A DNA stretch of 64,000 nt from a bacterium (GCA_023663725.1 JAMPGX010000008.1:16477-80476), one strand, 5' to 3'. Positions 2-11,780 are shown, counted from the stretch's first letter. Notes: generated from the sequence alone by a model not told the origin. Made by a program: numbers and translations.

Positions 2-697
2 AAGAAAATATTTGAGACTGGAATCAACAAGACTTATCTGGGGGATCTGTTGTCCGAGTATCTGCTGTCCTCCACGGACTCTGAGGAAGTCAAGACGGCG
101 CTGTCGGGCTATCTGATTGAATGCGGGTTCAAGGTGGATTCCAGTGTGCTGACGCAGTATATCACCTCGAATATCGATCCCGTCGAGGCGAGACTGGAGA
201 AGGCGAAGAAGCTGATTGCCAACGGCACTATGGTCAAGGCGGACTGTCTGGAGAACTATATTTTATCCGTGGAGAAGCCGTCCGACTTCTCGGAGCAGAT
301 CTTCAATCTGCTGGCGGAGGGCTCCTTCACGGTTGGTTTTGCCGCATATGCCAGGTTTCTCCTGGGCTGTCAGGACATTGACAAGGTCCGGCATCATGCC
401 AGAGTCGCAGCCGCCTTCTCCGGCGATTTGAGTCAGACGCAGACGACGGTGGGGCATGGGGGTGACAGCGTCATCTGCAATCTGCTGCAGGCCTATGTAT
501 TGACGGCTGCGGATTCCTACGATGTGGCCGCGGCGATTGTGAAGGACCTGATTGCCTCCAGAGTCAAGCTGAATACGGAGATTACAGTCAATGGCAGCAC
601 GGTGAAATTCAAGAAATATGTCGCGGAGAGAAAGGCGTGTCTCTCGCCGTTATCTCTGCAGCTATGTGAGGAAAACAAAATGTTTTCTCTGTTTTGA
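2..697 (+). CDS. Hypothetical protein, 5'-truncated by the window edge; first visible gene of the AAA/coiled-coil operon
   Basis: Frame is open from base 2 (KKIFETGINK...) into the 50..697 ORF; 45 bp gap to the next gene; no recognisable motif. Confidence 0.75.
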   Translation, partial: KKIFETGINKTYLGDLLSEYLLSSTDSEEVKTALSGYLIECGFKVDSSVLTQYITSNIDPVEARLEKAKKLIANGTMVKADCLENYILSVEKPSDFSEQIFNLLAEGSFTVGFAAYARFLLGCQDIDKVRHHARVAAAFSGDLSQTQTTVGHGGDSVICNLLQAYVLTAADSYDVAAAIVKDLIASRVKLNTEITVNGSTVKFKKYVAERKACLSPLSLQLCEENKMFSLF

Positions 698-742
698 GGC
701 AAGGCGATATCGGGAGTAGAATTGGGATGAGGGGGCGATGGA

Positions 743-2497
743 ATGACTGAAGCAGAAGCGATGGCGGAACGGGCGGAAGCGGAACGGCTTATGGCGGAGA
801 TCAACCGACTTTCGGGCCAGATCGATCGGGCGATTGCCGAGAACAATGAGTTGCAGGTCGAGTTATCGACGCTGATTCGCAATGTGGAGATACTGACGAA
901 AAATACGGCGGCTATGGACGCCGAGGTGAACAGAGCAATGGAGTCCCTGAGGGGCAGAGTTCAGGAGACAGATGTCAGCACCAGCGAGCTGTTCGCGCTG
1001 ATTGACGATCTGGCGAATTCCTACTATATGTTTAAGAACCTGAGCACCGCCTCGAAGAATGTCACGCAGTACACAGACGAATATTTCACCAGATTCCGTT
1101 TCTTTAATGAGTTGCGCAGGATATCGCTGGGCTATGTGATTGGCCTGGATATGCATATCTGTTCGGATGAGACCATGAGGAAAAAGGTGGAGGCCGCATA
1201 TCTTGAGAATACGGGGTATTGGCTTGCCTATGCGATCATGGCCGTGATGCTGTGGGCGAGCGACGAGCGGGAGGCGGCCGCGAGAGCCATGTCCAAGGCT
1301 CTCTCCATGGACTACTACAGTGCCTCGCTGTTCTTTCTGCTGATCAATCTGCGCTTTACCAGGGTGGATATAGCCAGAAAGTGGTATCTGACCTATCTTG
1401 AGCGCGTTGACTATGAGAATCTGGGGGATGAGTGGCAATATCTGCTGCAGGCGTATCTGTCGGGTGTGTTTGGCGTGGACAGGGAGTTCAACCGTCTGGT
1501 ACACGACAGCTTCACCAATATGCTGTTGCAGATGGAGAGTATGCATCCCAATTATGGGAACAAGGTGATCGAGAGGGCGCAGAACTATTCCGAGAGCTAT
1601 ATCCATGTCACCAGGAACGAGTTTGAGACGCTGCGGAGGAACTGCCCTGACTATGGCGAGATGAAAGCGCTGCTCTCGACAGCCGAGAAGAACGAGGTGC
1701 TGGCGGTACATTTGAAGGAGGTCCTGGAGAATGACGGGCAGGTCCCCACGGATATGTTCCAGCGCATAGAGGACATCCTGTATGATCTGATCAACGCCTA
1801 TGACCGGGAAGAATTGAAGGTGGTGAAGAACAGAAGATACAGCGAGATGGTGATCAAGGCGAAGGGCGATCTGGGCATGGCGCAGCAGTTCTACAATACG
1901 GAATTCCCCAGTGAGAACAACGCCAGAGCGCTGGAGGATCTGCTGTTTGAATGGGCATTTGAGGAAGATCCCCGGCGCGTGGATATTACGGTCAAGCAAT
2001 TTGCCCTGTCCCATCTGCACAAATGGCTGTCCAAGGGCTTTGCAGCTTTTGCGGAGAGATACCGCGGGCAGGAGAAGGAGAAGTACCGCATCGCCATCGA
2101 CGGCTGGGAGGGCGAGTGTGACGAGAACTCTTACGAGGAAGCGAAGGAGCGGCTGGAGAAGCATTATAATAAGAATCGGATGTTCAACATCTTGCAGGAT
2201 AAATATGTGCAGGTATTTGTCTGTATGGCGCTGGCGTCGCTGGTGACGCTGGGGATCACGGCGTTTCTGTTCAACAAGATATCGCTCGTGATCGGCATTC
2301 TGCTGGGCGTGGTGAGCGGATTCCTGCTCTGGAGGAGGATCGCTGATCTCCAGGTGATCTTGGCGCTGAAGCGAAAGCGGGGCTGTGAACTGCTGAAAAA
2401 GGCGATAGAGGAGATAAAGCGCTGGAGAGAGCTGTACCGGCTGGAGGACGCCAAGAACGCGGACCTGGTAGCGGTGCTGGACAATGCGGGATTTTGA
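743..2497 (+). CDS. Coiled-coil / helical-repeat protein with C-terminal two-TM hairpin (paralog A)
   Basis: 584 aa; N-terminal heptads; YWLAYA...SLFFLLINLRF...KWYLTY block shared with 2519 and 6382; two hydrophobic helices near the C-terminus; GAGGGG RBS. Confidence 0.85.
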   Translation: MTEAEAMAERAEAERLMAEINRLSGQIDRAIAENNELQVELSTLIRNVEILTKNTAAMDAEVNRAMESLRGRVQETDVSTSELFALIDDLANSYYMFKNLSTASKNVTQYTDEYFTRFRFFNELRRISLGYVIGLDMHICSDETMRKKVEAAYLENTGYWLAYAIMAVMLWASDEREAAARAMSKALSMDYYSASLFFLLINLRFTRVDIARKWYLTYLERVDYENLGDEWQYLLQAYLSGVFGVDREFNRLVHDSFTNMLLQMESMHPNYGNKVIERAQNYSESYIHVTRNEFETLRRNCPDYGEMKALLSTAEKNEVLAVHLKEVLENDGQVPTDMFQRIEDILYDLINAYDREELKVVKNRRYSEMVIKAKGDLGMAQQFYNTEFPSENNARALEDLLFEWAFEEDPRRVDITVKQFALSHLHKWLSKGFAAFAERYRGQEKEKYRIAIDGWEGECDENSYEEAKERLEKHYNKNRMFNILQDKYVQVFVCMALASLVTLGITAFLFNKISLVIGILLGVVSGFLLWRRIADLQVILALKRKRGCELLKKAIEEIKRWRELYRLEDAKNADLVAVLDNAGF

Positions 2498-2518
2498 TCT
2501 ATATAGAAGGAGAGCGAC

Positions 2519-4123
2519 ATGGCAAATTCATCTTATAATGCGGTCAACAGCCTCAACGAGACGATTGACTCTTTTAAATCAAAACTGGATGTAAAGATGG
2601 ACTCGGTCAACACATCTACCGCCAACATGAGGGCAACGACGGACAAGATATACGACAGCGTCAGCAAATTTAAGCAGGGCATGATACAGAATGAGGAGAA
2701 GCAGCTTGCCCATGAGAACATACTGAGAATTGACCAGATATTGAAGGAGCAGTTTGGCGATCACGAGGCCATCCGCAAGACCGTGATGGGCGTCGTGAGG
2801 GACTTTGACATCAACCTGGTGCGCAACAGCACGATACAGGAGATATCGGAGGAGCTGTGGATCACCAGCTCCAGATACTGGCTCTCCTACGCGCTCATCG
2901 CGATCACGGCGTGGATCAACGACTACAGGGAGGTGGCTTCCAATGCCCTGTCGGAATGTGTGCGGAGAGATCCGGTGAAGGCCTCGCTGTTCTTCTGTCT
3001 GTTCAATCTGAGATTCGGCAGGAACGGCATCGCCAGGAAGTGGTTCTTTGAATACTTAAAGACCCTCGATCCCACGAAAGTCCAGCAGGAGTCGGCGATT
3101 CTGCTCCAGGCCTATTTGAACGGCCTGTTCGGGACGGACAAGGAGCTCGAACACGATGTGAACAATGTCATCAAGGGGTGGATATCGGAGTTGAACGCGC
3201 ATCCCGATATCGCGGAGGAACTGACGGAAGCCTACCGCAAATATATTCAACTCCTGCCACCGCTCCGGCAGTGCAGCTATGCGGCGCTGCCGGAAGCCTG
3301 CGGCAATTATGACGCTATACGGCAGGCCTATGCGGATGTGTCCAAATACGAGAAGCTGATTGCCGTGGTGGACGAGATGGATGTGGAACTGGAGGAGCAG
3401 ACGGAGGCTAACTACAAGGGAAGAGTAGACGCCATCCTCACGGCGCTGATCTCCAACTATGATCAGGAGGAACTGGATCTGAAGAATCAGCAGGCGTATT
3501 TCAATTTTGTCATCGACAACAACGGGCAGGTCGAGGCCGCCCAGCAGCAGTACGAGGAATTCCAGGCAGTCCAGAAGGAGAGCTTCAATATCGGCAAGCA
3601 GATGATTAAGTGGGCGGTCTATGACGACAGGGACCAGACGGATGTTCATGTCAGGAAATTCGGCCTGCAGAACACCAGGATATGGCTTAGGGAGGCGATT
3701 GAGAGATGGGCGCTCTCCCTGCAGAAATCGCAGCCCATGGATTTCCCGCTGGCGATTGATTCCTGGAGATCCGTATCCAACGGGGCAGATCAGGCGGACC
3801 AGGTTGAGAACATGAAGCAATATTTCAACAATAACAAGTTCCAGTTTATGTATGTCAATACCTATAATATCGCAGCGCTGATTGTTCTGATCCTGTCGAT
3901 CGGCCTGGCGTTTGTCACGCCGTATGCGCTGATAGCGACGGCGGTTGCCGCGGCGTTCCTGGTATTTCGGATCATCAAGAGCAACCGGGATTATCCGGCG
4001 AGAATCAATGCGGCGCTGGAGAAGCTGAACGCGTGTATGGTGGAGCTGGCTGATTTCCAGCAGTTCTATGCGGAGAGCAGCGCTAAGAAGGACGCACTGC
4101 AGAGCAAGCTGGAATATCTGTAG
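2519..4123 (+). CDS. Coiled-coil / helical-repeat protein with C-terminal two-TM hairpin (paralog B)
   Basis: 534 aa; YWLSYA...SLFFCLFNLRF...KWFFEY; AAGGAG RBS; same architecture as paralog A. Confidence 0.85.
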   Translation: MANSSYNAVNSLNETIDSFKSKLDVKMDSVNTSTANMRATTDKIYDSVSKFKQGMIQNEEKQLAHENILRIDQILKEQFGDHEAIRKTVMGVVRDFDINLVRNSTIQEISEELWITSSRYWLSYALIAITAWINDYREVASNALSECVRRDPVKASLFFCLFNLRFGRNGIARKWFFEYLKTLDPTKVQQESAILLQAYLNGLFGTDKELEHDVNNVIKGWISELNAHPDIAEELTEAYRKYIQLLPPLRQCSYAALPEACGNYDAIRQAYADVSKYEKLIAVVDEMDVELEEQTEANYKGRVDAILTALISNYDQEELDLKNQQAYFNFVIDNNGQVEAAQQQYEEFQAVQKESFNIGKQMIKWAVYDDRDQTDVHVRKFGLQNTRIWLREAIERWALSLQKSQPMDFPLAIDSWRSVSNGADQADQVENMKQYFNNNKFQFMYVNTYNIAALIVLILSIGLAFVTPYALIATAVAAAFLVFRIIKSNRDYPARINAALEKLNACMVELADFQQFYAESSAKKDALQSKLEYL

Positions 4124-4193
4124 GGATACGGAATCTGATAATGGCATCTGTGTGCGAAGGATGCAAAGCTTTTAACAGAAAGGGAGAGATACC

Positions 4194-4364
4194 ATGGATA
4201 ATGAGATGAATCTGGAGTTGGGCGAACTGTTGGAGCAGAGGATACAGGAAAATTTTGGCGCGGGCGACGCGGGCGCCTATGATGTCTCAGACGAGCGGCT
4301 GAAGGAGATGAATAAGAAGCTCCCCAACTGGAGCCTGGAGCCTCCGTTCAGCTTCCTGAAGTAG
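4194..4364 (+). CDS. 56-aa acidic small protein (MDNEMNLELG...LPNWSLEPPFSFLK), not in the ORF track
   Basis: Hand translation; AGGGAGAG RBS upstream; fills the gap and stops 4 nt before the next ATG. Confidence 0.7.
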   Translation: MDNEMNLELGELLEQRIQENFGAGDAGAYDVSDERLKEMNKKLPNWSLEPPFSFLK

Positions 4365-4368
4365 AGCC

Positions 4369-4890
4369 ATGGAGGGAACACAGTACATACCCTATGCCGA
4401 GTGGGTGGCTCTGGCCTCAGCAGTGAGGGAAAAGGGCTTAAGAAGCCAGGAGTTCGAGCGGATGCGGCGCGTGTATCCCCAGTCGGCGGGGCCGGCCTAT
4501 GACCCTCTGGTGTATCGTGAGCTGGCTAAGTTGGAAGAGCACTTGCTGGGGCATGTCTTTCGAAGATTTCAGAGGGAGATCAACAGATGCCTGGAGGAAG
4601 CGGATATCGAGATCGCGGAGACCGCCATCGGGAATCTGAAGAGAGGTATAAGCTCGTGCCTGTTTTTCTGCCAGATACCGGAGTATCCAGAGGAGGTTCG
4701 AAAGGGCATGGAGCAGGAGATCAGACGTTATGCGCAGGACTTCCGGCGGGAATGCCTGGAGTACATGCGCCGTCTGGAGCGCAGCGACAGCAGCGACTTT
4801 ATCCAGGAGCTCGCCTATCTGTGTAGGAAGAGGATGGCAGGCTTGGTAGCGTCTGGCAGGGGAGAATACGCGGATGTCCAATTACGCTGA
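4369..4890 (+). CDS. Hypothetical helical protein, 173 aa
   Basis: ORF tightly coupled on both sides; overlaps the ATPase start. Confidence 0.75.
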   Translation: MEGTQYIPYAEWVALASAVREKGLRSQEFERMRRVYPQSAGPAYDPLVYRELAKLEEHLLGHVFRRFQREINRCLEEADIEIAETAIGNLKRGISSCLFFCQIPEYPEEVRKGMEQEIRRYAQDFRRECLEYMRRLERSDSSDFIQELAYLCRKRMAGLVASGRGEYADVQLR

Positions 4891-6373
4891 GACAAAACAG
4901 GAGATCAAGAACTATCTATATGCCCGCACGCCGTTGGTGATCGTCCATACGGACGAGCGGGAGAGAGTGGAGCGAATGCTGCACGAGATCGCGTCGGAGG
5001 GACAGATCAATTTCCTGTACTATACAGACGCGAAGCAGGTGAGAAGCATTGGCGGAAAAGCGGAGAGTATGGACACCCAGGAGGACCCGCTGGGATTCTT
5101 TCTGGGGCAGTTGAAGCGGCAGCGCAGCCTCAACATCGTGCTGGGGGATGTGCGGCGAATTGCGGATGACAATGCATATTCCCGCGAGCTGATGAATATA
5201 TTGTATATTGCGAAAGAGAACAACGGCGTCGTGGTTCTGGTCACGTCTGATCGGGCCTGGAGCCGGATATCCTCGTTTGGAATGGTGGTCACGCTGGACT
5301 TGCCGGATACCAGAGAGAGGATGCTGCAGATCGCCAGATTCGTGAAGACATATTCCGGCAGATTCTCGATCGACTGGGATGAGTCCGACGTGCTGCACGC
5401 GGCGGCACTGCTGCGGGGATTTTCCGAGATACAGATCGACAATCTGCTGTCGGCGGAGATCATCGGCAGCAACGGGCTGAGGAAGGACAAGCTCTACAGG
5501 CTCGCGTCACAGAAGCAGAGGCTTTACCCCAAGACGGGTATTGTCCAGCACATCGAGATCAGCCGCGCTTACAGGGCGGCGGGAATGGACAGGCTCAAGG
5601 CGTGGCTCGCGGACAAGAAGAAGATATTCTTTCTGCCGGAGGAGAAGCTCTCCGAGTATGAGTTGAAGGCTCCCAAGGGAATCCTGCTGGTGGGCGTGCC
5701 CGGCTGTGGAAAGTCGCTGACGGCCAAGCTGGTAGCGCAGGAGTGGGAGCTTCCCCTCTTTCGGTTTGACATTGGCTCCGTGTTCGACAAATGGGTCGGC
5801 GAGAGCGAGAAGAAGATGCGGGAGGCCCTGCATTTCATCGAGAACGTTTCGCCCTGTGTGCTGTGGATTGACGAGATAGAGAAGGTGCTGGCCACCTCGG
5901 ATGCCGGCAATGAGACCGGCAAGAGAGTGCTGGGCGAATTCCTGTTCTGGATTCAGGAGTCCTCCAGCAAGGTTTTCATGGTGGCAACGGCCAACAATGT
6001 CAAGGTATTGCCCTATGAATTGTACCGGAAGGGGAGATTCTCAGAGGTGTTCTACGCGGGACTTCCCAATCCGCGGGAGAGGCGGGCAGCGATTGCGCAC
6101 TATATGCGCGTCTCGCTGAAAATAGAAGAACCGGCCCCTGATTTTCTGGAGGAATTGGTTCAGATGACTGACCGGTATTCCTACGCGGATATCGAGACGG
6201 CCATCAAGGAAGTGGCACAACAGCTGCTGATATCCAATCAGACCGAGGTCGGCAGGTCGATGATCATAGCGTCCATACGATCCATTATCCCTATTTCCAC
6301 GATCAATCAGGAGTTGGTCGAGGAGATCGAACAGTGGGGAAGAGAGAGAGCTGTGGATGTGTCCGATAATTAA
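4874..6373 (+). CDS. AAA+ ATPase, Ycf46-like architecture (degenerate N-terminal domain plus one active AAA domain)
   Basis: Walker A GVPGCGKS, Walker B VLWIDEIEK, sensor-1/SRH TANN...RKGRF. Confidence 0.9.
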   Translation: MSNYAETKQEIKNYLYARTPLVIVHTDERERVERMLHEIASEGQINFLYYTDAKQVRSIGGKAESMDTQEDPLGFFLGQLKRQRSLNIVLGDVRRIADDNAYSRELMNILYIAKENNGVVVLVTSDRAWSRISSFGMVVTLDLPDTRERMLQIARFVKTYSGRFSIDWDESDVLHAAALLRGFSEIQIDNLLSAEIIGSNGLRKDKLYRLASQKQRLYPKTGIVQHIEISRAYRAAGMDRLKAWLADKKKIFFLPEEKLSEYELKAPKGILLVGVPGCGKSLTAKLVAQEWELPLFRFDIGSVFDKWVGESEKKMREALHFIENVSPCVLWIDEIEKVLATSDAGNETGKRVLGEFLFWIQESSSKVFMVATANNVKVLPYELYRKGRFSEVFYAGLPNPRERRAAIAHYMRVSLKIEEPAPDFLEELVQMTDRYSYADIETAIKEVAQQLLISNQTEVGRSMIIASIRSIIPISTINQELVEEIEQWGRERAVDVSDN

Positions 6374-6381
6374 GGGGGGTA

Positions 6382-8103
6382 ATGCAATTGAGCAACTATA
6401 GTTTGAAAGCGGAAGTCAGCAGGCTGCAGTCCAGGCTTCGGGATATCGAGAACGAGAACAGAAAATTGCGCTCCGAGATTAACGCCACTGTCAGAAGCGT
6501 GAACGAGGCGGAGCGGAATCTGTCGGACTACAATCAGCAGGTCAGAAACGCGCTGGAGAGCGCCAACGGGAGCATCAAGAGCTCTATAGACCATGCGCTG
6601 AGCGCCTATGAGCTGCAGGGGCAGATAGACCAGTTATATACGAGATTCAAGAGCGTAGAGCTGGCCAACAAGAAGATTCGGACCCTGAATAATAAGAAGT
6701 ACTATGACTTCAACAATTACAGGACAGTCAGGAAGATTGTCCAGGGCTTGATGGACAACCTCGACCTGAGCCTGGTGAGCGACCAGGTGATCTATAAGTC
6801 CATAGAACGCCAGCATCTACAGACGCCGGACTTCTGGCTTACCCCTGTATTGATCAGCATTATGGCCTGGAAGAACGACGACAAGCAGTTGGCGGACAGG
6901 GCTATGGAGACAGCCTGCAGGCTGGATATGAAGAACAGCAGCATCTTCTATATGATATTCAACATGCGCATGGAGCGGGATGAGGCGGCGGTCAAATGGT
7001 TTCTGGAGTACCAGAAGTGCAGCCTCAAGGGAAGCGATGAGAATACCTTCCTGATGTTGTTCTCCCTGATCAGCCGGACGCTCTCCGACAATGTCGATGA
7101 GGAGACCTCCAGAATGATCTCCGATTATATCCACAGAATTATCGTCGAATGCGCCGAGCAAGCGGGATACAGCGAGAGCGACGTGATCGGAATCATCCAG
7201 GGCAAGATGCTGGCGCTGCTCAAGGCAATGCCGCAGGAATTGCCGGCGCTTGCCAAATATTGCAGCGACTACGGCACGATCGCGACGATGCTCAACCTGG
7301 CCGGCAACAATTACAATATTCTGGAGTTCATCCTGAGAGTGGTCAACGTTCCCGTAGCGGAGCGCAACACCTATCTGAAGGAATATCTGAATGAGCTGCT
7401 GGCCAAGCCCAACGAGGTGGAGATAGAGACCTATGACGAGATCGAATACAATGAGCTGGTCATCCGTCTGAGCGGCGACGTGGAGCAGGCCAGGGAGCTC
7501 TATGATCGGGAACAGCTCAGGCGCAGGTCCGATTTTAATATCATATCCAGCATGGTACAATGGATCTATGATTTCGGCAATGATGATGTGAACGGGCAGA
7601 TGCGACTCAATATGTTCACTCTGATCAAGACATTGCAGGAGAAGGCGGCGGAAGCCTATTTTGCCAAGTACCGGTCGATGTATCGGGAGGTGCATCCGGT
7701 GCAGATCTTGGATTATCAGACGGATGTGGATTTCACGCAGGAAGCGGGAGAGCTCGGCAAGGCGGAGAGCTTTTATCAGGATCAGCAGAAGCAGGAGCTG
7801 TCCGCGGTCAAAAATACCATGGCTTTCGTGGCCTTTGGTCTGGGAATTGCCTGCGGGGTGGCGGCGCCGTTCGTGCATCTGGCGCTGTTTGCCGGACTGG
7901 GCATAGGGGCGGCGGTCGGGATCGGGATACTGATCTCCAACCGGTACAAGCGCAGGAACATTATGCTGCGTATTCAGAAACAAAAGGAGAATGTGCTGGA
8001 GATCCTGCGCAGGCTCTTTGCCGATTTCGCGAAGTTGAGGGCGATTTATCAGGAGTACGATGGGATATCGGCAAGAATCATGGAGGAATACGCGAAGCTG
8101 TAA
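6382..8103 (+). CDS. Coiled-coil / helical-repeat protein with C-terminal two-TM hairpin (paralog C)
   Basis: 573 aa; FWLTPV...SIFYMIFNMRM...KWFLEY; same layout as A and B. Confidence 0.85.
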   Translation: MQLSNYSLKAEVSRLQSRLRDIENENRKLRSEINATVRSVNEAERNLSDYNQQVRNALESANGSIKSSIDHALSAYELQGQIDQLYTRFKSVELANKKIRTLNNKKYYDFNNYRTVRKIVQGLMDNLDLSLVSDQVIYKSIERQHLQTPDFWLTPVLISIMAWKNDDKQLADRAMETACRLDMKNSSIFYMIFNMRMERDEAAVKWFLEYQKCSLKGSDENTFLMLFSLISRTLSDNVDEETSRMISDYIHRIIVECAEQAGYSESDVIGIIQGKMLALLKAMPQELPALAKYCSDYGTIATMLNLAGNNYNILEFILRVVNVPVAERNTYLKEYLNELLAKPNEVEIETYDEIEYNELVIRLSGDVEQARELYDREQLRRRSDFNIISSMVQWIYDFGNDDVNGQMRLNMFTLIKTLQEKAAEAYFAKYRSMYREVHPVQILDYQTDVDFTQEAGELGKAESFYQDQQKQELSAVKNTMAFVAFGLGIACGVAAPFVHLALFAGLGIGAAVGIGILISNRYKRRNIMLRIQKQKENVLEILRRLFADFAKLRAIYQEYDGISARIMEEYAKL

Positions 8104-8114
8104 GGCATGAAAAA

Positions 8115-8157
8115 ATGCTCCCAGTCGCCGGTTGAGATACCGAGCGGCTGGGAGCAT
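8115..8157 (+). terminator. Hairpin ending the AAA operon
   Basis: ATGCTCCCAG...CTGGGAGCAT perfect arms with inner TCGC/CGGT pairing, just after the stop at 8103. Confidence 0.7.
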
Positions 8158-8229
8158 AATCATTAAAAACCCAATCAATAAAAAGAGAAAAAGGCGTAAT
8201 TCTCCATAGATAATATATGAGAGTTGTGG

Positions 8230-8354
8230 TATAATTATTACTCCAATATGCAGTATCTTAATTGCGGATGATTGCGCAGCGGCCTGCACCAATGCCGGAC
8301 TCGTCCAAGGTTCGTGGTCTGCGCAATCAAAGCGATGCGGTACTGGCGAGGAGG
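8230..8354 (+). promoter_or_regulatory. Extended -10 promoter and structured 5' leader of the MATE gene
   Basis: TGTGG-TATAAT at 8230; nested pairings 8251-8257/8339-8345 and 8269-8279/8319-8329 (11 bp perfect), ending beside the SD. Confidence 0.5.
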
Positions 8355-8359
8355 CAATT

Positions 8360-9781
8360 ATGTCAGACGATAAAATTACATGGCCCTCTTTTTTAAAGCT
8401 GATGATGGCTATTGCATTCCCTGTTGCGCTTCAGAATCTGCTGTCCACCACCGCCAGCATGGTGGATACCATCATGATTGGCAGCCAGGGAGAGCTGTCC
8501 GTGGCCGCGGTGGGGATATGCTCCCAGATCAGCTCGCTGTTCTTCTCCTGTTATTGGGGATTCGCGGGAGGCGCCATGCTGTTCTTTTCCCAGTATTGGG
8601 GAGCCCGCAACGAGAGGGGAATCAGCCAGACCTTTGGCGTGACCTTCATCTTTATGGTCATTGTGGGCGGACTGTTTGCTGTGACAGCGATCACGAATCC
8701 GGAGTTCATGCTGGGAATATACACCGACAAGGTGAAAATTATCCAGATGGGCGTACCCTATATCCGCATCGTGGGATGGGCCTATCCGCTGCAGGTGTTG
8801 GCCGTGCTGGTCAGCTTCTTTATGAGGGCTACGGAGCGGGTAAAAGCGCCGCTGTTCTGCTCGATTGTCTCGCTGGCAGTCAATTTTGTATTGAACTGGA
8901 TATTGATCTATGGGCATTACGGCGCTCCCAAGATGGGAGTGGCCGGAGCAGCGGTAGGCACGCTGGCCTCGGGAGCTGTCAATCTGCTTCTGCTGGTGGT
9001 GTTTCTGCTGACCTCCAAGTGCGAGATCCGTCTGCGGCTGCGGGACATGTTTGGACTGCGAAGAGAATTTCTGGGCGCGTATCTGTCAAAATGTCTGCCC
9101 ATTCTGGCCAATGAGATGCTCTATGGAGTGGGGCAGATGATTATCAATATTGTCATAGGGCATCAGGACGAGTCCGCGATTGCGGCTATGGCGGCATTCC
9201 GCGTCTGCGAGGGTTTCGTGTATGCATTCTTCGGCGGACTGTCCAATGCCGCCAGCGTGATCATCGGCAAGGAGGCAGGCGCCGGCCATTTGCCCAGAGC
9301 GTATAACTATTGCCGCAAATCTTCGCTGTTCTGTCCGATGGTCACTTTTGCGGTGGTCGCGTTTATGACATTATTGAACAGGCCGATTCTGGGGCTGTTT
9401 GGCCTGGGGGCAGCCGCAATGTCCTATGGGAAATATATGCTGCTGATCTATCTGTTGTTCGGCACGATACGCACCTGCAACTATATTATGAACGAGTCCT
9501 ATCGGGCAGGCGGAGAGGCTGTGTTCGGCACAGTGCTGGAGGTGAGCTGTCTCTTTGTGATCAGCGTGCCTGCCACATGGGTCGCAGGCATGGTGTTAAA
9601 GCTGCCATTTCTGGCGGTGTTCGCTTTTGTATATACGGACGAGATCATCCGGCTGCTGGTGGAGAGCAGATACACAGCGTCCGGAAGATGGCTTAAGCCT
9701 GTGACAGAGCAGGGTATCCGCGCGCTGCCGGAATTTCGTGAGTGGCTGGGAGAACGCCGCGGGAGGGGAAGGAATCTGTAA
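8360..9781 (+). CDS. MATE family efflux transporter
   Basis: 473 aa; two-fold repeated MATE pattern ([11 protein letters not shown]...VDTIMIG; GVAGAAVGT); many TM helices. Confidence 0.92.
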
Positions 9782-9800
9782 ACGAGAGGAGAAATACGTC

Positions 9801-11780
9801 ATGAAGAAGAAATTGGGGATACGCACTAAGCTGATTATCGTGATTATTCCGGTGGTACTGGCGCTGATCGCCTGCTTTTTTCTGATCAGCCGCCGTCTGA
9901 TTATCGAGCAGGCCCAGGAGAAGCTGGAAGCACAGTCCGCCGTATATGCGGAGGACGCCTCCGGCTGGGTCGAGCAGATACTGGGGGAGCTGAGAGTATA
10001 TCAGGACGCCATCAATAAGGGAACCTTTGACAATGATCGGGAGATATTGGCGTTCATGGAGATCTCGACGACAATCAATGAAGCTTATCCGGTGGGACTG
10101 TACATGGGGGATGACAGCGGCATATATCTGGACGCCTCCGGCTGGGTGCCGGGTGATGACTGGGTACTGACGGAGCGGGACTGGTATGTGGAGGGACGAG
10201 ACCATACAGAATTCGCCTTTGGCGAGCCCTATTATGACTCTCAGACGGGACAGGTCTGTGTCAGCGCCTCGGTGCGCATGGATTATGACAAAGCGGTCCG
10301 CGTGATGGCGGTAGATGTATATCTGGACTATGTGGCCAATATGATGAAAGAGATCAGGCTGGGGGAAAGCGGGAGAGCTTTTCTGGTGACTGGCAGTCAG
10401 GTGGTGATCGCTCACCCTGAGGAAGCGATGATGGAGGCCAATCTGCGCCAGGAGGGACTGGATGCACTCTACGGCAATATCAGCGGGGCGCTTGATGAGG
10501 GGCTCACCGGTCTGATCCGCATACAGGGCGATGACGGCGGCTATCTGAGCCATATCAGTCCGATTTCAGGCACGGACTGGCGGCTGGTGACTTTTATCTC
10601 GGAGAATGAGGTCCTTGCGGACCTGCATCTGCTGGAGCTGTATATGTTGGCGGTGGCTGTGGTGGCAGCGGCAGTGTTGGTGCTTCTGATTCTGAGGATG
10701 ATGAACCGGATTGTGAAGCCGGTGCAGGCGGTGACCGATACGCTGGCGGCGGTGGCAGCAGGCGATTTTACCCGCAATCTGGAGGTGAAGGGCCATGACG
10801 AGATCGCTATGATGAGCGGCAACATGCAGATGTTTCTGGAGAAGATGCGCGGCATGATCGCACAGATCAGCGATACCGCCAATTGGCTCAGCAAGCAGTC
10901 TCAGGACAACGGTGTGGTGTCAGGTACGTTGAACAGGTCTGCGGGATGTCAGCAAAAGGCCATGGAGGAGCTGCAGCTGATGGTAGAAAAGCTGTCGAAA
11001 ACAGTGGACAGCTTCAGTAATCAGATGGAGCAGCTGACGGCGGATATCCGCACTGCCCACAAGGAGGGAACACAGGCGGGAAATATCATGCAAGAGGCGG
11101 CGGCAGTGTCAAGGGATGGGCAGCAGGCCATGGCGCAGATCGGACAGGGTATGGATATGATCGAGCAGACCATCACCTCCCTGGCGGAGCAGGTCGGTCA
11201 TACCCGAGACACCATCGGGCGGATCAATGAGATGGTGGGCATGATCATGGATATTTCGGAGGAGACCAATCTGCTGGCGCTAAACGCCTCCATCGAGGCG
11301 GCCAGAGCGGGAGAGGCAGGGAAAGGCTTTGCTGTGGTGGCGGAGCAGATCGGTAAGCTGGCCGCCAACAGCAATGAGGCGGCGGATGATATCTCCAGAC
11401 TGACGCAGGATATCAGTGAGGCGGTATCCAAGGCTGTGGCACATACTGATACCAGCGTGGGCAAGGTCAAGGAGAGCGCTGCAATGATCGAGTCCGCCAG
11501 CCAGACCTTTAGCGGTGTGTTTGACCAGGTGGAGGAGACAGGCGGTATCGTAGCACATATGGTAGAGCTGATCGGCCAGGTGGATCAGGCGGCTCTGCAA
11601 ATGGCTGAACTCATGGAGGATCAGCTGCATGTGTCACAGGATATCTCCAGATCGGCTGCGGAGATGAGAGAGCAGACGGAGGTAGTGACCCTGCAGAGCG
11701 AGAAAGCGGCGGACAGCGCTCAGGCGTTGGAGCAGCAGTCAGGCAAGCTGCTGGCGGATATGAAGCAGTTTAAGATATAG
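9801..11780 (+). CDS. Methyl-accepting chemotaxis protein (Cache sensor, HAMP, MCP signal domain)
   Basis: TM-Cache (RDWY...GEPYYD)-TM-HAMP; signal motif [30 protein letters not shown]; start moved to ATG 9801 behind GAGGAG. Confidence 0.95.

Follow-up and report, generated by a model that had tools for sequence, protein, structure and literature searches.

In Bacillus subtilis, the SPFH protein YdjI (SamI), the architecture of which has been described (PMC11237479), recruits the ESCRT-III-like protein PspA to the membrane (PMC8581546, PMC13713150), and PspA itself has occasional links to an ATPase in which the first of two AAA+ domains is inactive (Ravi et al., PMC11237479). SPFH proteins also accompany some archaeal ESCRT loci (PMC11188069). 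The current work concerns a locus that shares parts with these systems and is located at the beginning of a 64,000-nucleotide stretch of bacterial DNA (GCA_023663725.1, JAMPGX010000008.1:16477-80476; G000:C48:16477-80476 in our numbering), this whole stretch being referred to below as the window. At this locus a cassette of nine genes, in the order U1-U2-U3-A-B-s1-s2-ATPase-C, encodes three paralogous proteins with a membrane hairpin (A, B and C), two small proteins (s1 and s2), an AAA+ ATPase and three further proteins (U1, U2 and U3), of which U1 is a YdjI-like SPFH protein. The cassette is real, tightly conserved, self-contained and horizontally mobile; the proteins specific to it are undescribed, and no described system was matched in the libraries and literature searched. 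Its function is probably one of conflict at the cell membrane rather than one of housekeeping.

A scan of species-representative genomes recovered 35 loci, in which the nine-gene order is kept except where the locus is cut by a contig end or reduced (as in L038), with U3 being found at the same position in 27 loci and with protein identities across nine-gene loci falling to approximately 40% for A and 26% for U3. The hosts are mostly Clostridia, being members of the Lachnospiraceae (including Hungatella hathewayi WAL-18680), the Oscillospiraceae and others, together with one metagenome-assembled genome (MAG) labelled Anaerolinea. In two loci with called genes the cassette is bounded exactly by U1 and C, with unrelated genes beyond C, one of these loci being placed between pyrimidine and purine biosynthesis genes; the genome available from the same genus as the window's host lacks the A family and is too diverged for the boundaries of the cassette insertion to be defined. 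The distribution is patchy: of 300 other genera sampled from the host family, four were found to have the A family, and among 398 further genomes of the class seven encode relatives of the ATPase, the nearest three being approximately 36% identical over their full length.

Two of these ATPase relatives, together with one more family match, are encoded in cassettes with a single A-type gene, consisting of an A-family gene, a small gene, an s2 homologue and the ATPase gene (L051, L052 and L056). The same core of four to five genes was retrieved by plasmid and phage protein searches from two small Komagataeibacter plasmids, a Comamonas megaplasmid, the chromosome of Fusobacterium vincentii and the 14-kb Streptococcus satellite phage Javan368. 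The core of the system is one A-family protein, s1, s2 and the ATPase, to which the examined single-copy cassettes add a protein of approximately 160 amino acids (aa), designated Y, with the exceptions of L057 and of L056 (where the gene after the ATPase is unrelated). Between the versions from Fusobacterium, the Streptococcus satellite and Clostridia, similarity is very high (E 1e-179 to 1e-198), which points to recent transfer across phyla. With 35 loci recovered and the core present in four phyla, this neighbourhood survey bears out the co-conservation of the gene set on which an earlier note on this DNA, made from its sequence, had made its proposal of an undescribed system depend. Two observations may be added on individual records. 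The Fusobacterium vincentii entry is filed in PLSDB as 'plasmid pSB055A' (NZ_CP084075.1) and is evidently a chromosome, with a size of 2.1 Mb and one annotated feature. Locus L057:7199-11966 (G104) encodes an SPFH-zinc-ribbon protein, a U2-like transmembrane (TM) protein, a 287-aa zinc-ribbon protein, one A-family protein and an s1-like protein of 59 aa ending in FPDWDLHPPVIR; there is no ATPase gene nearby, the next gene being isoleucyl-tRNA-synthetase-like.

The ATPase matches the AAA family PF00004 (E 1.8e-30; 106.5 bits against a cut-off of 21.2), and its nearest solved relatives are VAT and p97 D2 (E 1e-44 to 1e-39). Across 25 orthologs the residues K280 of Walker A, D333 and E334 of Walker B (WIDEIEK), the pore loop K306-W-V-G309, N374 of sensor 1 and the arginine fingers R385-K-G-R388 are invariant, and with its two Walker motifs, an aromatic pore loop and arginine fingers in a second region of homology (SRH) the protein has the defining features of the classical clade (PF00004). 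The Walker and SRH motifs that the earlier note had read as intact are therefore also conserved among the orthologs, and from these motifs the protein looks like an active, substrate-threading unfoldase. The Cdc48/VAT-D2-like active domain is preceded by a degenerate AAA-like domain (residues 1 to approximately 235) that lacks any catalytic motif and was recognized by aligning the N-terminal half of the protein with its C-terminal half, the two being in register with the region from strand 4 to the lid of the active domain (hhalign, E 1.3e-3). The designation 'Ycf46-like' given in the same note was not confirmed: no Ycf46 model matched in NCBIfam or Pfam scans, the literature searched offered nothing of use on this point, and what was seen is a two-domain layout. 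As an aside, remoter relatives of the ATPase (30-34% identity; L053, L054 and L055) are encoded in operons without an A-family gene, which indicates that this ATPase subfamily also serves other partners.

Judged by their sequences, A, B and C are true paralogs, in agreement with the previous description of three diverged copies with a common layout: A and B are 26% identical (E 2e-52), A and C 23% (E 1e-42, nearly end to end) and B and C 22% (E 2e-26). An alignment of 95 orthologous sequences of A, B and C has invariant or nearly invariant columns that include W160, L161, W171, S195, F197, N202, R204, K213, W214, Y218, E357, G375 and A380, and the blocks that had been named beforehand are recovered among them, that is [YF]WL (W160, L161), SxFxxxxNxR (S195, F197, N202, R204), KWxxxY (K213, W214, Y218), YDxEEL (E357) and GxxxxA (G375, A380). 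A hydrophobicity scan places a hairpin of approximately 45 residues near the C-terminus of each paralog. In B approximately 40 N-terminal heptad residues are missing, while C is the most diverged copy and has a long branch in the tree. The maximum-likelihood tree resolves A, B and C as one clade each (support 99-100) with similar internal branching, which points to an old, co-evolving trio whose triplication predates all sampled nine-gene cassettes; three old co-evolving paralogs in turn argue for a hetero-oligomer. Single-copy A-family proteins from elsewhere score best against B and group with B in the tree (98% support). The whole family comprises 809 representatives at 50% identity clustering (E<=1e-3), with every name seen being 'hypothetical protein'. 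A separate observation concerns the Anaerolinea-labelled Chloroflexota MAG (L017, CAYXWV010000056.1), the A, B and C copies of which nest in Bacillota clades, next to or near those of an Oscillospiraceae MAG (L016), as would result from transfer into Chloroflexota or from a binning error.

An AlphaFold2 model of A (95 sequences; predicted local distance difference test score, pLDDT, 81.9) is all-alpha, with long N-terminal helices (residues 3-74 and 80-137), a solenoid of short helix pairs (approximately 140-440), a beta hairpin (448-459), the membrane hairpin (487-509 and 512 to approximately 535) and a long C-terminal helix. In this model the hairpin topology would place both large parts of the protein on one side of the membrane, presumably the cytoplasmic one because a signal peptide is absent and the ATPase is soluble. 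When the model was compared with the PDB and a viral library using Foldseek, nothing was found at E<0.001 and the best matches were generic TPR proteins. Tripartite alpha-pore-forming toxins (MakA, SmhB and AhlB) were also retrieved at a non-significant level (E 0.1-0.5; TM-score 0.16-0.3); these toxins are secreted and far shorter, and the match was dismissed as noise.

The last 14 residues of s1, LPNWSLEPPFSFLK, carry a family-wide motif G[LF]PxWx[LI]xP[PA], and L43, P44, W46, L48, E49 and P50 are invariant in 24 orthologs. In the single-copy cassettes of the plasmids, the satellite and Fusobacterium, the gene 3' of the A-family gene encodes a small protein ending in G[LF]PxW[DNST][LI]xP[PA], followed by hydrophobic and then basic residues, and the motif likewise occurs in the Clostridia variants. 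Among all of these, some of the s1-type genes lack an annotation, and in some the product is fused behind a zinc ribbon. Unannotated s1-like open reading frames (ORFs) are located between the A-family and s2-like genes of Javan368 (MK448457.1; L058, approximately 9680-9866) and of Fusobacterium vincentii (CP084075.1; L071, approximately 10530-10700), and their C-terminal ends are GLPSWDIVPPQLLVRRKRQK and GFPAWNLEPPQVAVR, respectively. The gene for s2 is always directly 5' of the ATPase gene. Its product, of approximately 160 aa in the core as a whole, has a conserved N-terminal PxxYxEW, in the alignment of which W12 is invariant and Y9 near-invariant, and despite rapid divergence a phmmer network joins s2 into one family in all loci, single-paralog variants included.

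Scans of the proteins of the window and of the upstream DNA against Pfam, NCBIfam and PADLOC returned AAA, SPFH and zinc-ribbon domains only, plus coiled-coil noise, and assigned A, B, C, s1, s2, U2 and U3 to no family. Profiles of A/B/C, s2 and U3 had no sequence relative among solved structures (for A/B/C nothing at E<0.3), with s2 being without relative in both Pfam and the PDB. A, s2 and U3 are without an informative relative by sequence or predicted fold, and s1 is without one by sequence. Since no description of the cassette was found in the literature searched either, the earlier statement that the locus maps to no named system is upheld for Pfam, NCBIfam, PADLOC, the PDB (by sequence and by fold) and this literature.

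The genes at the 5' end of the cassette are located wholly or in part upstream of the window (DNA analysed as L003). U1 (412 aa) consists of an SPFH domain of the Band_7_1 type (PF13421, E 2.2e-31) and a C-terminal DZR double zinc ribbon (E 3.4e-11), is without TM segment in a hydrophobicity scan, and has the architecture of YdjI. U2 (235 aa) has four to five predicted TM helices and a soluble C-terminal part of approximately 110 residues, without a TPM match or any significant Pfam match. For U3, an N-terminal Cys4 zinc ribbon is followed by a TPR/PPR-like alpha-solenoid, or superhelix, of approximately 600 residues (AlphaFold2, pLDDT 88.6), with which Foldseek retrieved generic TPR/PPR-type repeat proteins only. 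A second Band_7_1 SPFH gene of the same genome was noted at G000:C11:185572-186243 (E 4.5e-18).

With such a partner the cassette may be an envelope-stress or membrane-repair module, that is, an analogue of PspA/ESCRT-III with an SPFH recruiter, in which A, B and C would form polymers where the membrane is damaged or curved, with the ATPase recycling them. The YdjI-like SPFH partner and the membrane-shaping architecture, in which hairpin anchors are combined with coiled coils as is typical of membrane-shaping proteins, keep a repair or remodelling role under consideration, and the degenerate first and active second AAA domain of the ATPase reproduce the layout of the PspA-linked ATPases (PMC11237479). 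Moreover, a search for PspA (PF04012) that detected it in control genomes found none in the genome of the window, which is 96% complete, and variant loci carry enzymes of cell-wall type. PspA is nevertheless present in approximately 30% of the sampled genera of the host family and in two of seven cassette-bearing genomes, so that it neither complements nor accompanies the cassette as a required partner. Furthermore, A, B and C have no match to PspA_IM30 or Snf7 at E<=1 in Pfam, and no ESCRT-III structure is among the top 50 fold matches of A (these being TPR proteins and weak alpha-pore-formers), a whole-chain comparison that leaves room for a local likeness of the hairpin; U2 and U3 match neither YdjH, with its TPM domain, nor YdjG. 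Unlike the broadly inherited Psp and Vipp1, the cassette is rare and patchy and is carried on plasmids and on a phage satellite. A repair module is considered improbable.

Some relatives of the cassette carry additional genes. Nine nine-gene loci (L007, L011, L012, L014, L017, L021, L025, L027 and L039) carry an insert of 3.7-6.1 kb between U3 and A, while about two-thirds of the nine-gene loci are without it. The insert encodes a soluble ATPase of the HerA/FtsK superfamily of approximately 900 aa (HerA_C/DUF87; PADLOC HerA and mad8 models), a protein whose N-terminus is acidic and rich in repeats and whose C-terminal domain is interchangeable, and a small protein whose family switches together with that domain. 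The C-terminal domains include Endonuclea_NS_2 (E 9e-25, L027), Gln_amidase 'papain fold toxin 1' (E 3e-11, L007), an HExxH peptidase-like domain (L012, L039) and a Cys-His peptidase-like domain with GTCGPTS...DHW (L014, L017, L021, L025, L027, L052); in L019 and L020 the small 'immunity-like' gene alone is retained. In single-paralog variants the ATPase gene is followed by the same Cys-peptidase-like protein with its partner, or by zinc-ribbon-TM proteins with beta-lactamase-like, lectin-like or GH3 domains. The combination of swappable C-terminal domain and co-varying small gene that marks polymorphic toxins was found in the relatives L007, L012, L025, L027, L039 and L052, and was not found in the window or its genome. 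Searches of PDB sequences with the Cys-peptidase-like domain, with Y and with the small partner protein returned nothing.

Several details of these accessory proteins were recorded in addition. In the toxin-domain proteins a short acidic motif, MDS[VA]E and, a few residues on, [LF]xFx[DE][DE], occurs as many as four times (L025:7395-9491; homologues in L007, L011, L012, L014 and L039) and may be a docking signal. In L027 (8800-9966) the partner protein is fused behind an N-terminal region of approximately 230 aa with a weak HD-domain match (PF13328, E 2.5e-3), and the toxin-domain protein of this locus has gained its Endonuclea_NS_2 domain as an extra one. At L051:10644-13006 and L052:463-3004 the core has links to a GH3 glycosidase and to zinc-ribbon-TM proteins whose extracytoplasmic domains are beta-lactamase-like or lectin-like. 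Nearly every accessory partner of the system has a cytoplasmic zinc ribbon.

From these modules it could be proposed that the cassette is a platform for the handling or export of toxin cargo, loosely analogous to type VII secretion, with A, B and C forming a conduit or docking site and the AAA+ ATPase, with or without the HerA/FtsK-like one, preparing polymorphic toxins and driving them across the membrane; the window's genome would then contain a cargo-less version or one whose cargo is supplied in trans. The position of the module inside the operon, the interchangeable domains with their co-varying small genes, the orphan partner genes of L019 and L020, and the similar cargo in the slot after the ATPase of single-paralog variants keep such a role alive. 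It has to be weighed against the fact that no HerA-like, toxin-domain, partner or acidic-repeat-motif protein was found in the window's genome, that most nine-gene loci lack the module, that the cargo proteins are predicted to have neither a signal peptide nor a TM segment and the HerA-like ATPase no TM segment, and that no WXG100, EssC or other defining component of a secretion system was seen. In addition, the same core is present in diderm Proteobacteria and Fusobacteria and in monoderm Firmicutes without an envelope-spanning part, which argues against a dedicated secretion apparatus. Toxin handling is regarded as unlikely.

The explanation that is tentatively preferred, with a confidence somewhat short of even, is that of an ATPase-reset membrane assembly used in conflict, i.e., in defence against phages or other mobile elements, with the assembly being a regulated sensor or effector. 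The strict gene order, the matching trees of the trio, the intact ATPase motifs and the hairpin topology, by which both large parts of A, B and C would share the cytoplasm with the ATPase, are counted in its favour. A conflict role is favoured because of the patchy distribution, the transfer across phyla, the carriage on small plasmids and a phage satellite, and the plug-in effectors of toxin type; in particular, the mobile single-paralog cassettes and the optional module with HerA, toxin and immunity-like genes shift the balance toward conflict and away from housekeeping maintenance of the envelope. A complete retron III-A, located approximately 4.6 kb upstream of U1 in the same genome (L003:1581-4084, corresponding to G000:C48 approximately 6057-8560), is also counted in favour of this role; its components were identified by PADLOC as a phosphoribosyltransferase (PRTase, E 9e-64), a winged-helix protein (E 7e-8) and a reverse transcriptase (E 1e-130).

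For such an assembly we infer how the proteins interact, in which direction the ATPase acts and what role the whole has, along the following lines. Hairpins and coiled coils would join A, B and C into an assembly at the cytoplasmic face of the membrane, in the nine-gene form inside a microdomain organised by the SPFH protein, with its zinc-ribbon partners as scaffold. The ATPase, as a hexamer, would dock through s2, through the tail of s1, or through both, these acting as adaptors, and would thread one subunit, so that the assembly would be disassembled, extracted or reset in the way that Vps4 acts on ESCRT-III or TRIP13 on HORMA proteins.

Several findings weigh against a function in defence. 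The toxin domains of the relatives are typical of secreted polymorphic toxins with immunity genes, a pattern more in keeping with competition between bacteria than with abortive infection. The SPFH partner, for its part, is known chiefly from pspA-ydjGHI, a membrane-stress operon of Bacillus. No set of components in the cassette fits one anti-phage system of PADLOC-DB 2.0, the only matches being those of the IetA models to the generic AAA core, and coiled-coil noise. The flanks of 31 loci are heterogeneous and mostly housekeeping, and approximately 5% of 143 flanking proteins match PADLOC models, each of a different system (a figure read from a list of 25 families with one member per family); with matches so few and scattered, enrichment in defence islands is weak.

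If the proposed mechanism is true, bacteria would have a second solution, unrelated to the known one of ESCRT-III/Vps4, to the ATP-driven remodelling of membrane-bound protein assemblies. It can be extended to the doubtful, though not far-fetched, proposal of a new class of bacterial membrane machine in which a Cdc48-like unfoldase cycles hairpin proteins with coiled coils and TPR-like repeats within an SPFH microdomain, a logic similar to that of ESCRT-III/Vps4 having been invented independently, and which would be deployed as a modular immune or toxin-deploying device on plasmids and satellites, with plug-in effectors such as HerA modules, nucleases, deamidases and peptidases. The current work adds no fewer than three protein families, namely the A family, s2, and s1 with the peptide motif at its end. 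Carriage on plasmids and a satellite, together with the hosting of toxin modules, makes the cassette a candidate for a new immune or competition system of gut Clostridia, and the five-gene plasmid version is small enough for direct testing in laboratory strains.

Within the window, seven ORFs on the + strand span positions 2-8103 (Table 1), the six complete genes being spaced by -17 to 71 nt, with the ATPase gene overlapping s2 by 17 nt and with an even GC content of 0.50-0.57. The tight packing of a transcription unit, previously placed at 2-8157, is thereby substantiated, whereas its start is not inside the window: the unit begins 3.3 kb further 5', where U1, U2 and most of U3 are located, and the window holds the downstream two-thirds of the nine-gene cassette. 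U1 and U2 precede U3 with spacers of 29 and 44 nt, and 1,309 nt of the U3 gene (L003:10691-12697) precede the window. Directly 5' of U1 is TGGACA-17-TATAAT (11 of 12 matches), which among the sites of the region comes closest to a sigma-70 promoter. A MATE efflux gene at 8360, with promoter-like sites of its own, comes after C, and on the other side the retron is followed by a nucleotidyltransferase-like gene and a GNAT gene.

Table 1. Cassette features located in the window (positions counted from its first nucleotide).
Feature	Position	Strand	Basis and remarks
U3 (3' part)	2-697	+	last 231 residues of 668-aa protein; ORF open at 5' end
Paralog A, 584 aa	743-2497	+	ORF; N-terminal long helices, TPR-like solenoid, beta hairpin, TM hairpin, C-terminal helix
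Membrane hairpin of A	2201-2347	+	residues ~487-535; Kyte-Doolittle peaks 491-509 and 512-530; model helices H487-509 and H512-570
Paralog B, 534 aa	2519-4123	+	ORF; alignment to A and C
Membrane hairpin of B	3839-3988	+	residues ~441-490; hydrophobicity scan, alignment with A and C
s1, 56 aa	4194-4364	+	ORF; family-wide C-terminal motif
s2, 173 aa	4369-4890	+	ORF; fast-evolving, N-terminal PxxYxEW
AAA+ ATPase, 499 aa	4874-6373	+	PF00004
Walker A GVPGCGKS	5693-5716	+	residues 274-281; 7 of 8 columns invariant in 25 orthologs, V275 being V or I
Paralog C, 573 aa	6382-8103	+	ORF; last gene of unit
Membrane hairpin of C	7813-7941	+	residues ~478-520; hydrophobicity scan, alignment

On the defining features tested, the cassette is not a member of the ESCRT-III/Vps4, Psp/Sam or type VII systems, although it resembles each of them in part. 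With ESCRT-III/Vps4 it shares paralogous helical coiled-coil subunits that bind the membrane beside an AAA+ unfoldase of the classical clade whose pore loop is aromatic, and CdvC is the best-scoring named NCBIfam family for the active domain of the ATPase (E 8e-26), this score being far below the cut-off for CdvC/Vps4 membership (90.7 bits against 650, with only residues 255-489 matching). In contrast to ESCRT-III, the proteins A, B and C, of approximately 570 aa, are integral to the membrane by way of a hairpin and have a TPR-like solenoid, and no ESCRT-III fold or Pfam signal was detected in them; the ATPase has a dead AAA-like N-domain instead of the MIT domain of Vps4, and the cassette is bacterial, rare and mobile. 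The likeness to the Bacillus operon pspA-ydjGHI (samGHI) consists of a cytosolic Band_7_1 SPFH protein with a C-terminal zinc ribbon, encoded next to membrane and zinc-ribbon proteins (PMC8581546, PMC13713150, PMC11237479). Of the features by which Psp/Sam was tested, the YdjI-type SPFH protein with zinc ribbon is present (U1), and a pspA gene and a YdjH-type TPM partner were not found: the cassette operon contains no PspA, U2 is without a TPM domain and U3 is a soluble 668-aa solenoid rather than a zinc-ribbon/NTF2/TM protein, whereas the Bacillus operon lacks the A-family trio, s1, s2 and the ATPase.

Mycobacterial EccA, a component of type VII secretion, is a TPR-AAA+ protein. The module-bearing relatives resemble type VII systems by their FtsK/HerA-superfamily ATPase, toxins with swappable domains and co-varying small genes, small helical accessory proteins and an accessory AAA+ protein. 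The differences are that homologues of EssC/EccC, WXG100, EsaA, EssA or EssB were not detected, that the HerA-like ATPase is soluble, that the window's genome is without the module, and that the core also occurs in diderm bacteria. With regard to Iet, the PADLOC IetA models match the active AAA domain (E 1e-30), a match confined to the generic AAA core, while no IetS-like protease is present and the partners are entirely different. The combination of an SPFH scaffold with a classical-clade AAA+ machine at the cytoplasmic membrane is shared with HflK/HflC-FtsH, from which the cassette differs in that its ATPase has no protease domain or TM anchor and its SPFH protein, without TM segment, is of another subfamily. 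The closest described systems are ESCRT-III/Vps4 by logic, the Bacillus operon pspA-ydjGHI by shared parts and, in the relatives only, type VII secretion with its polymorphic toxins by cargo.

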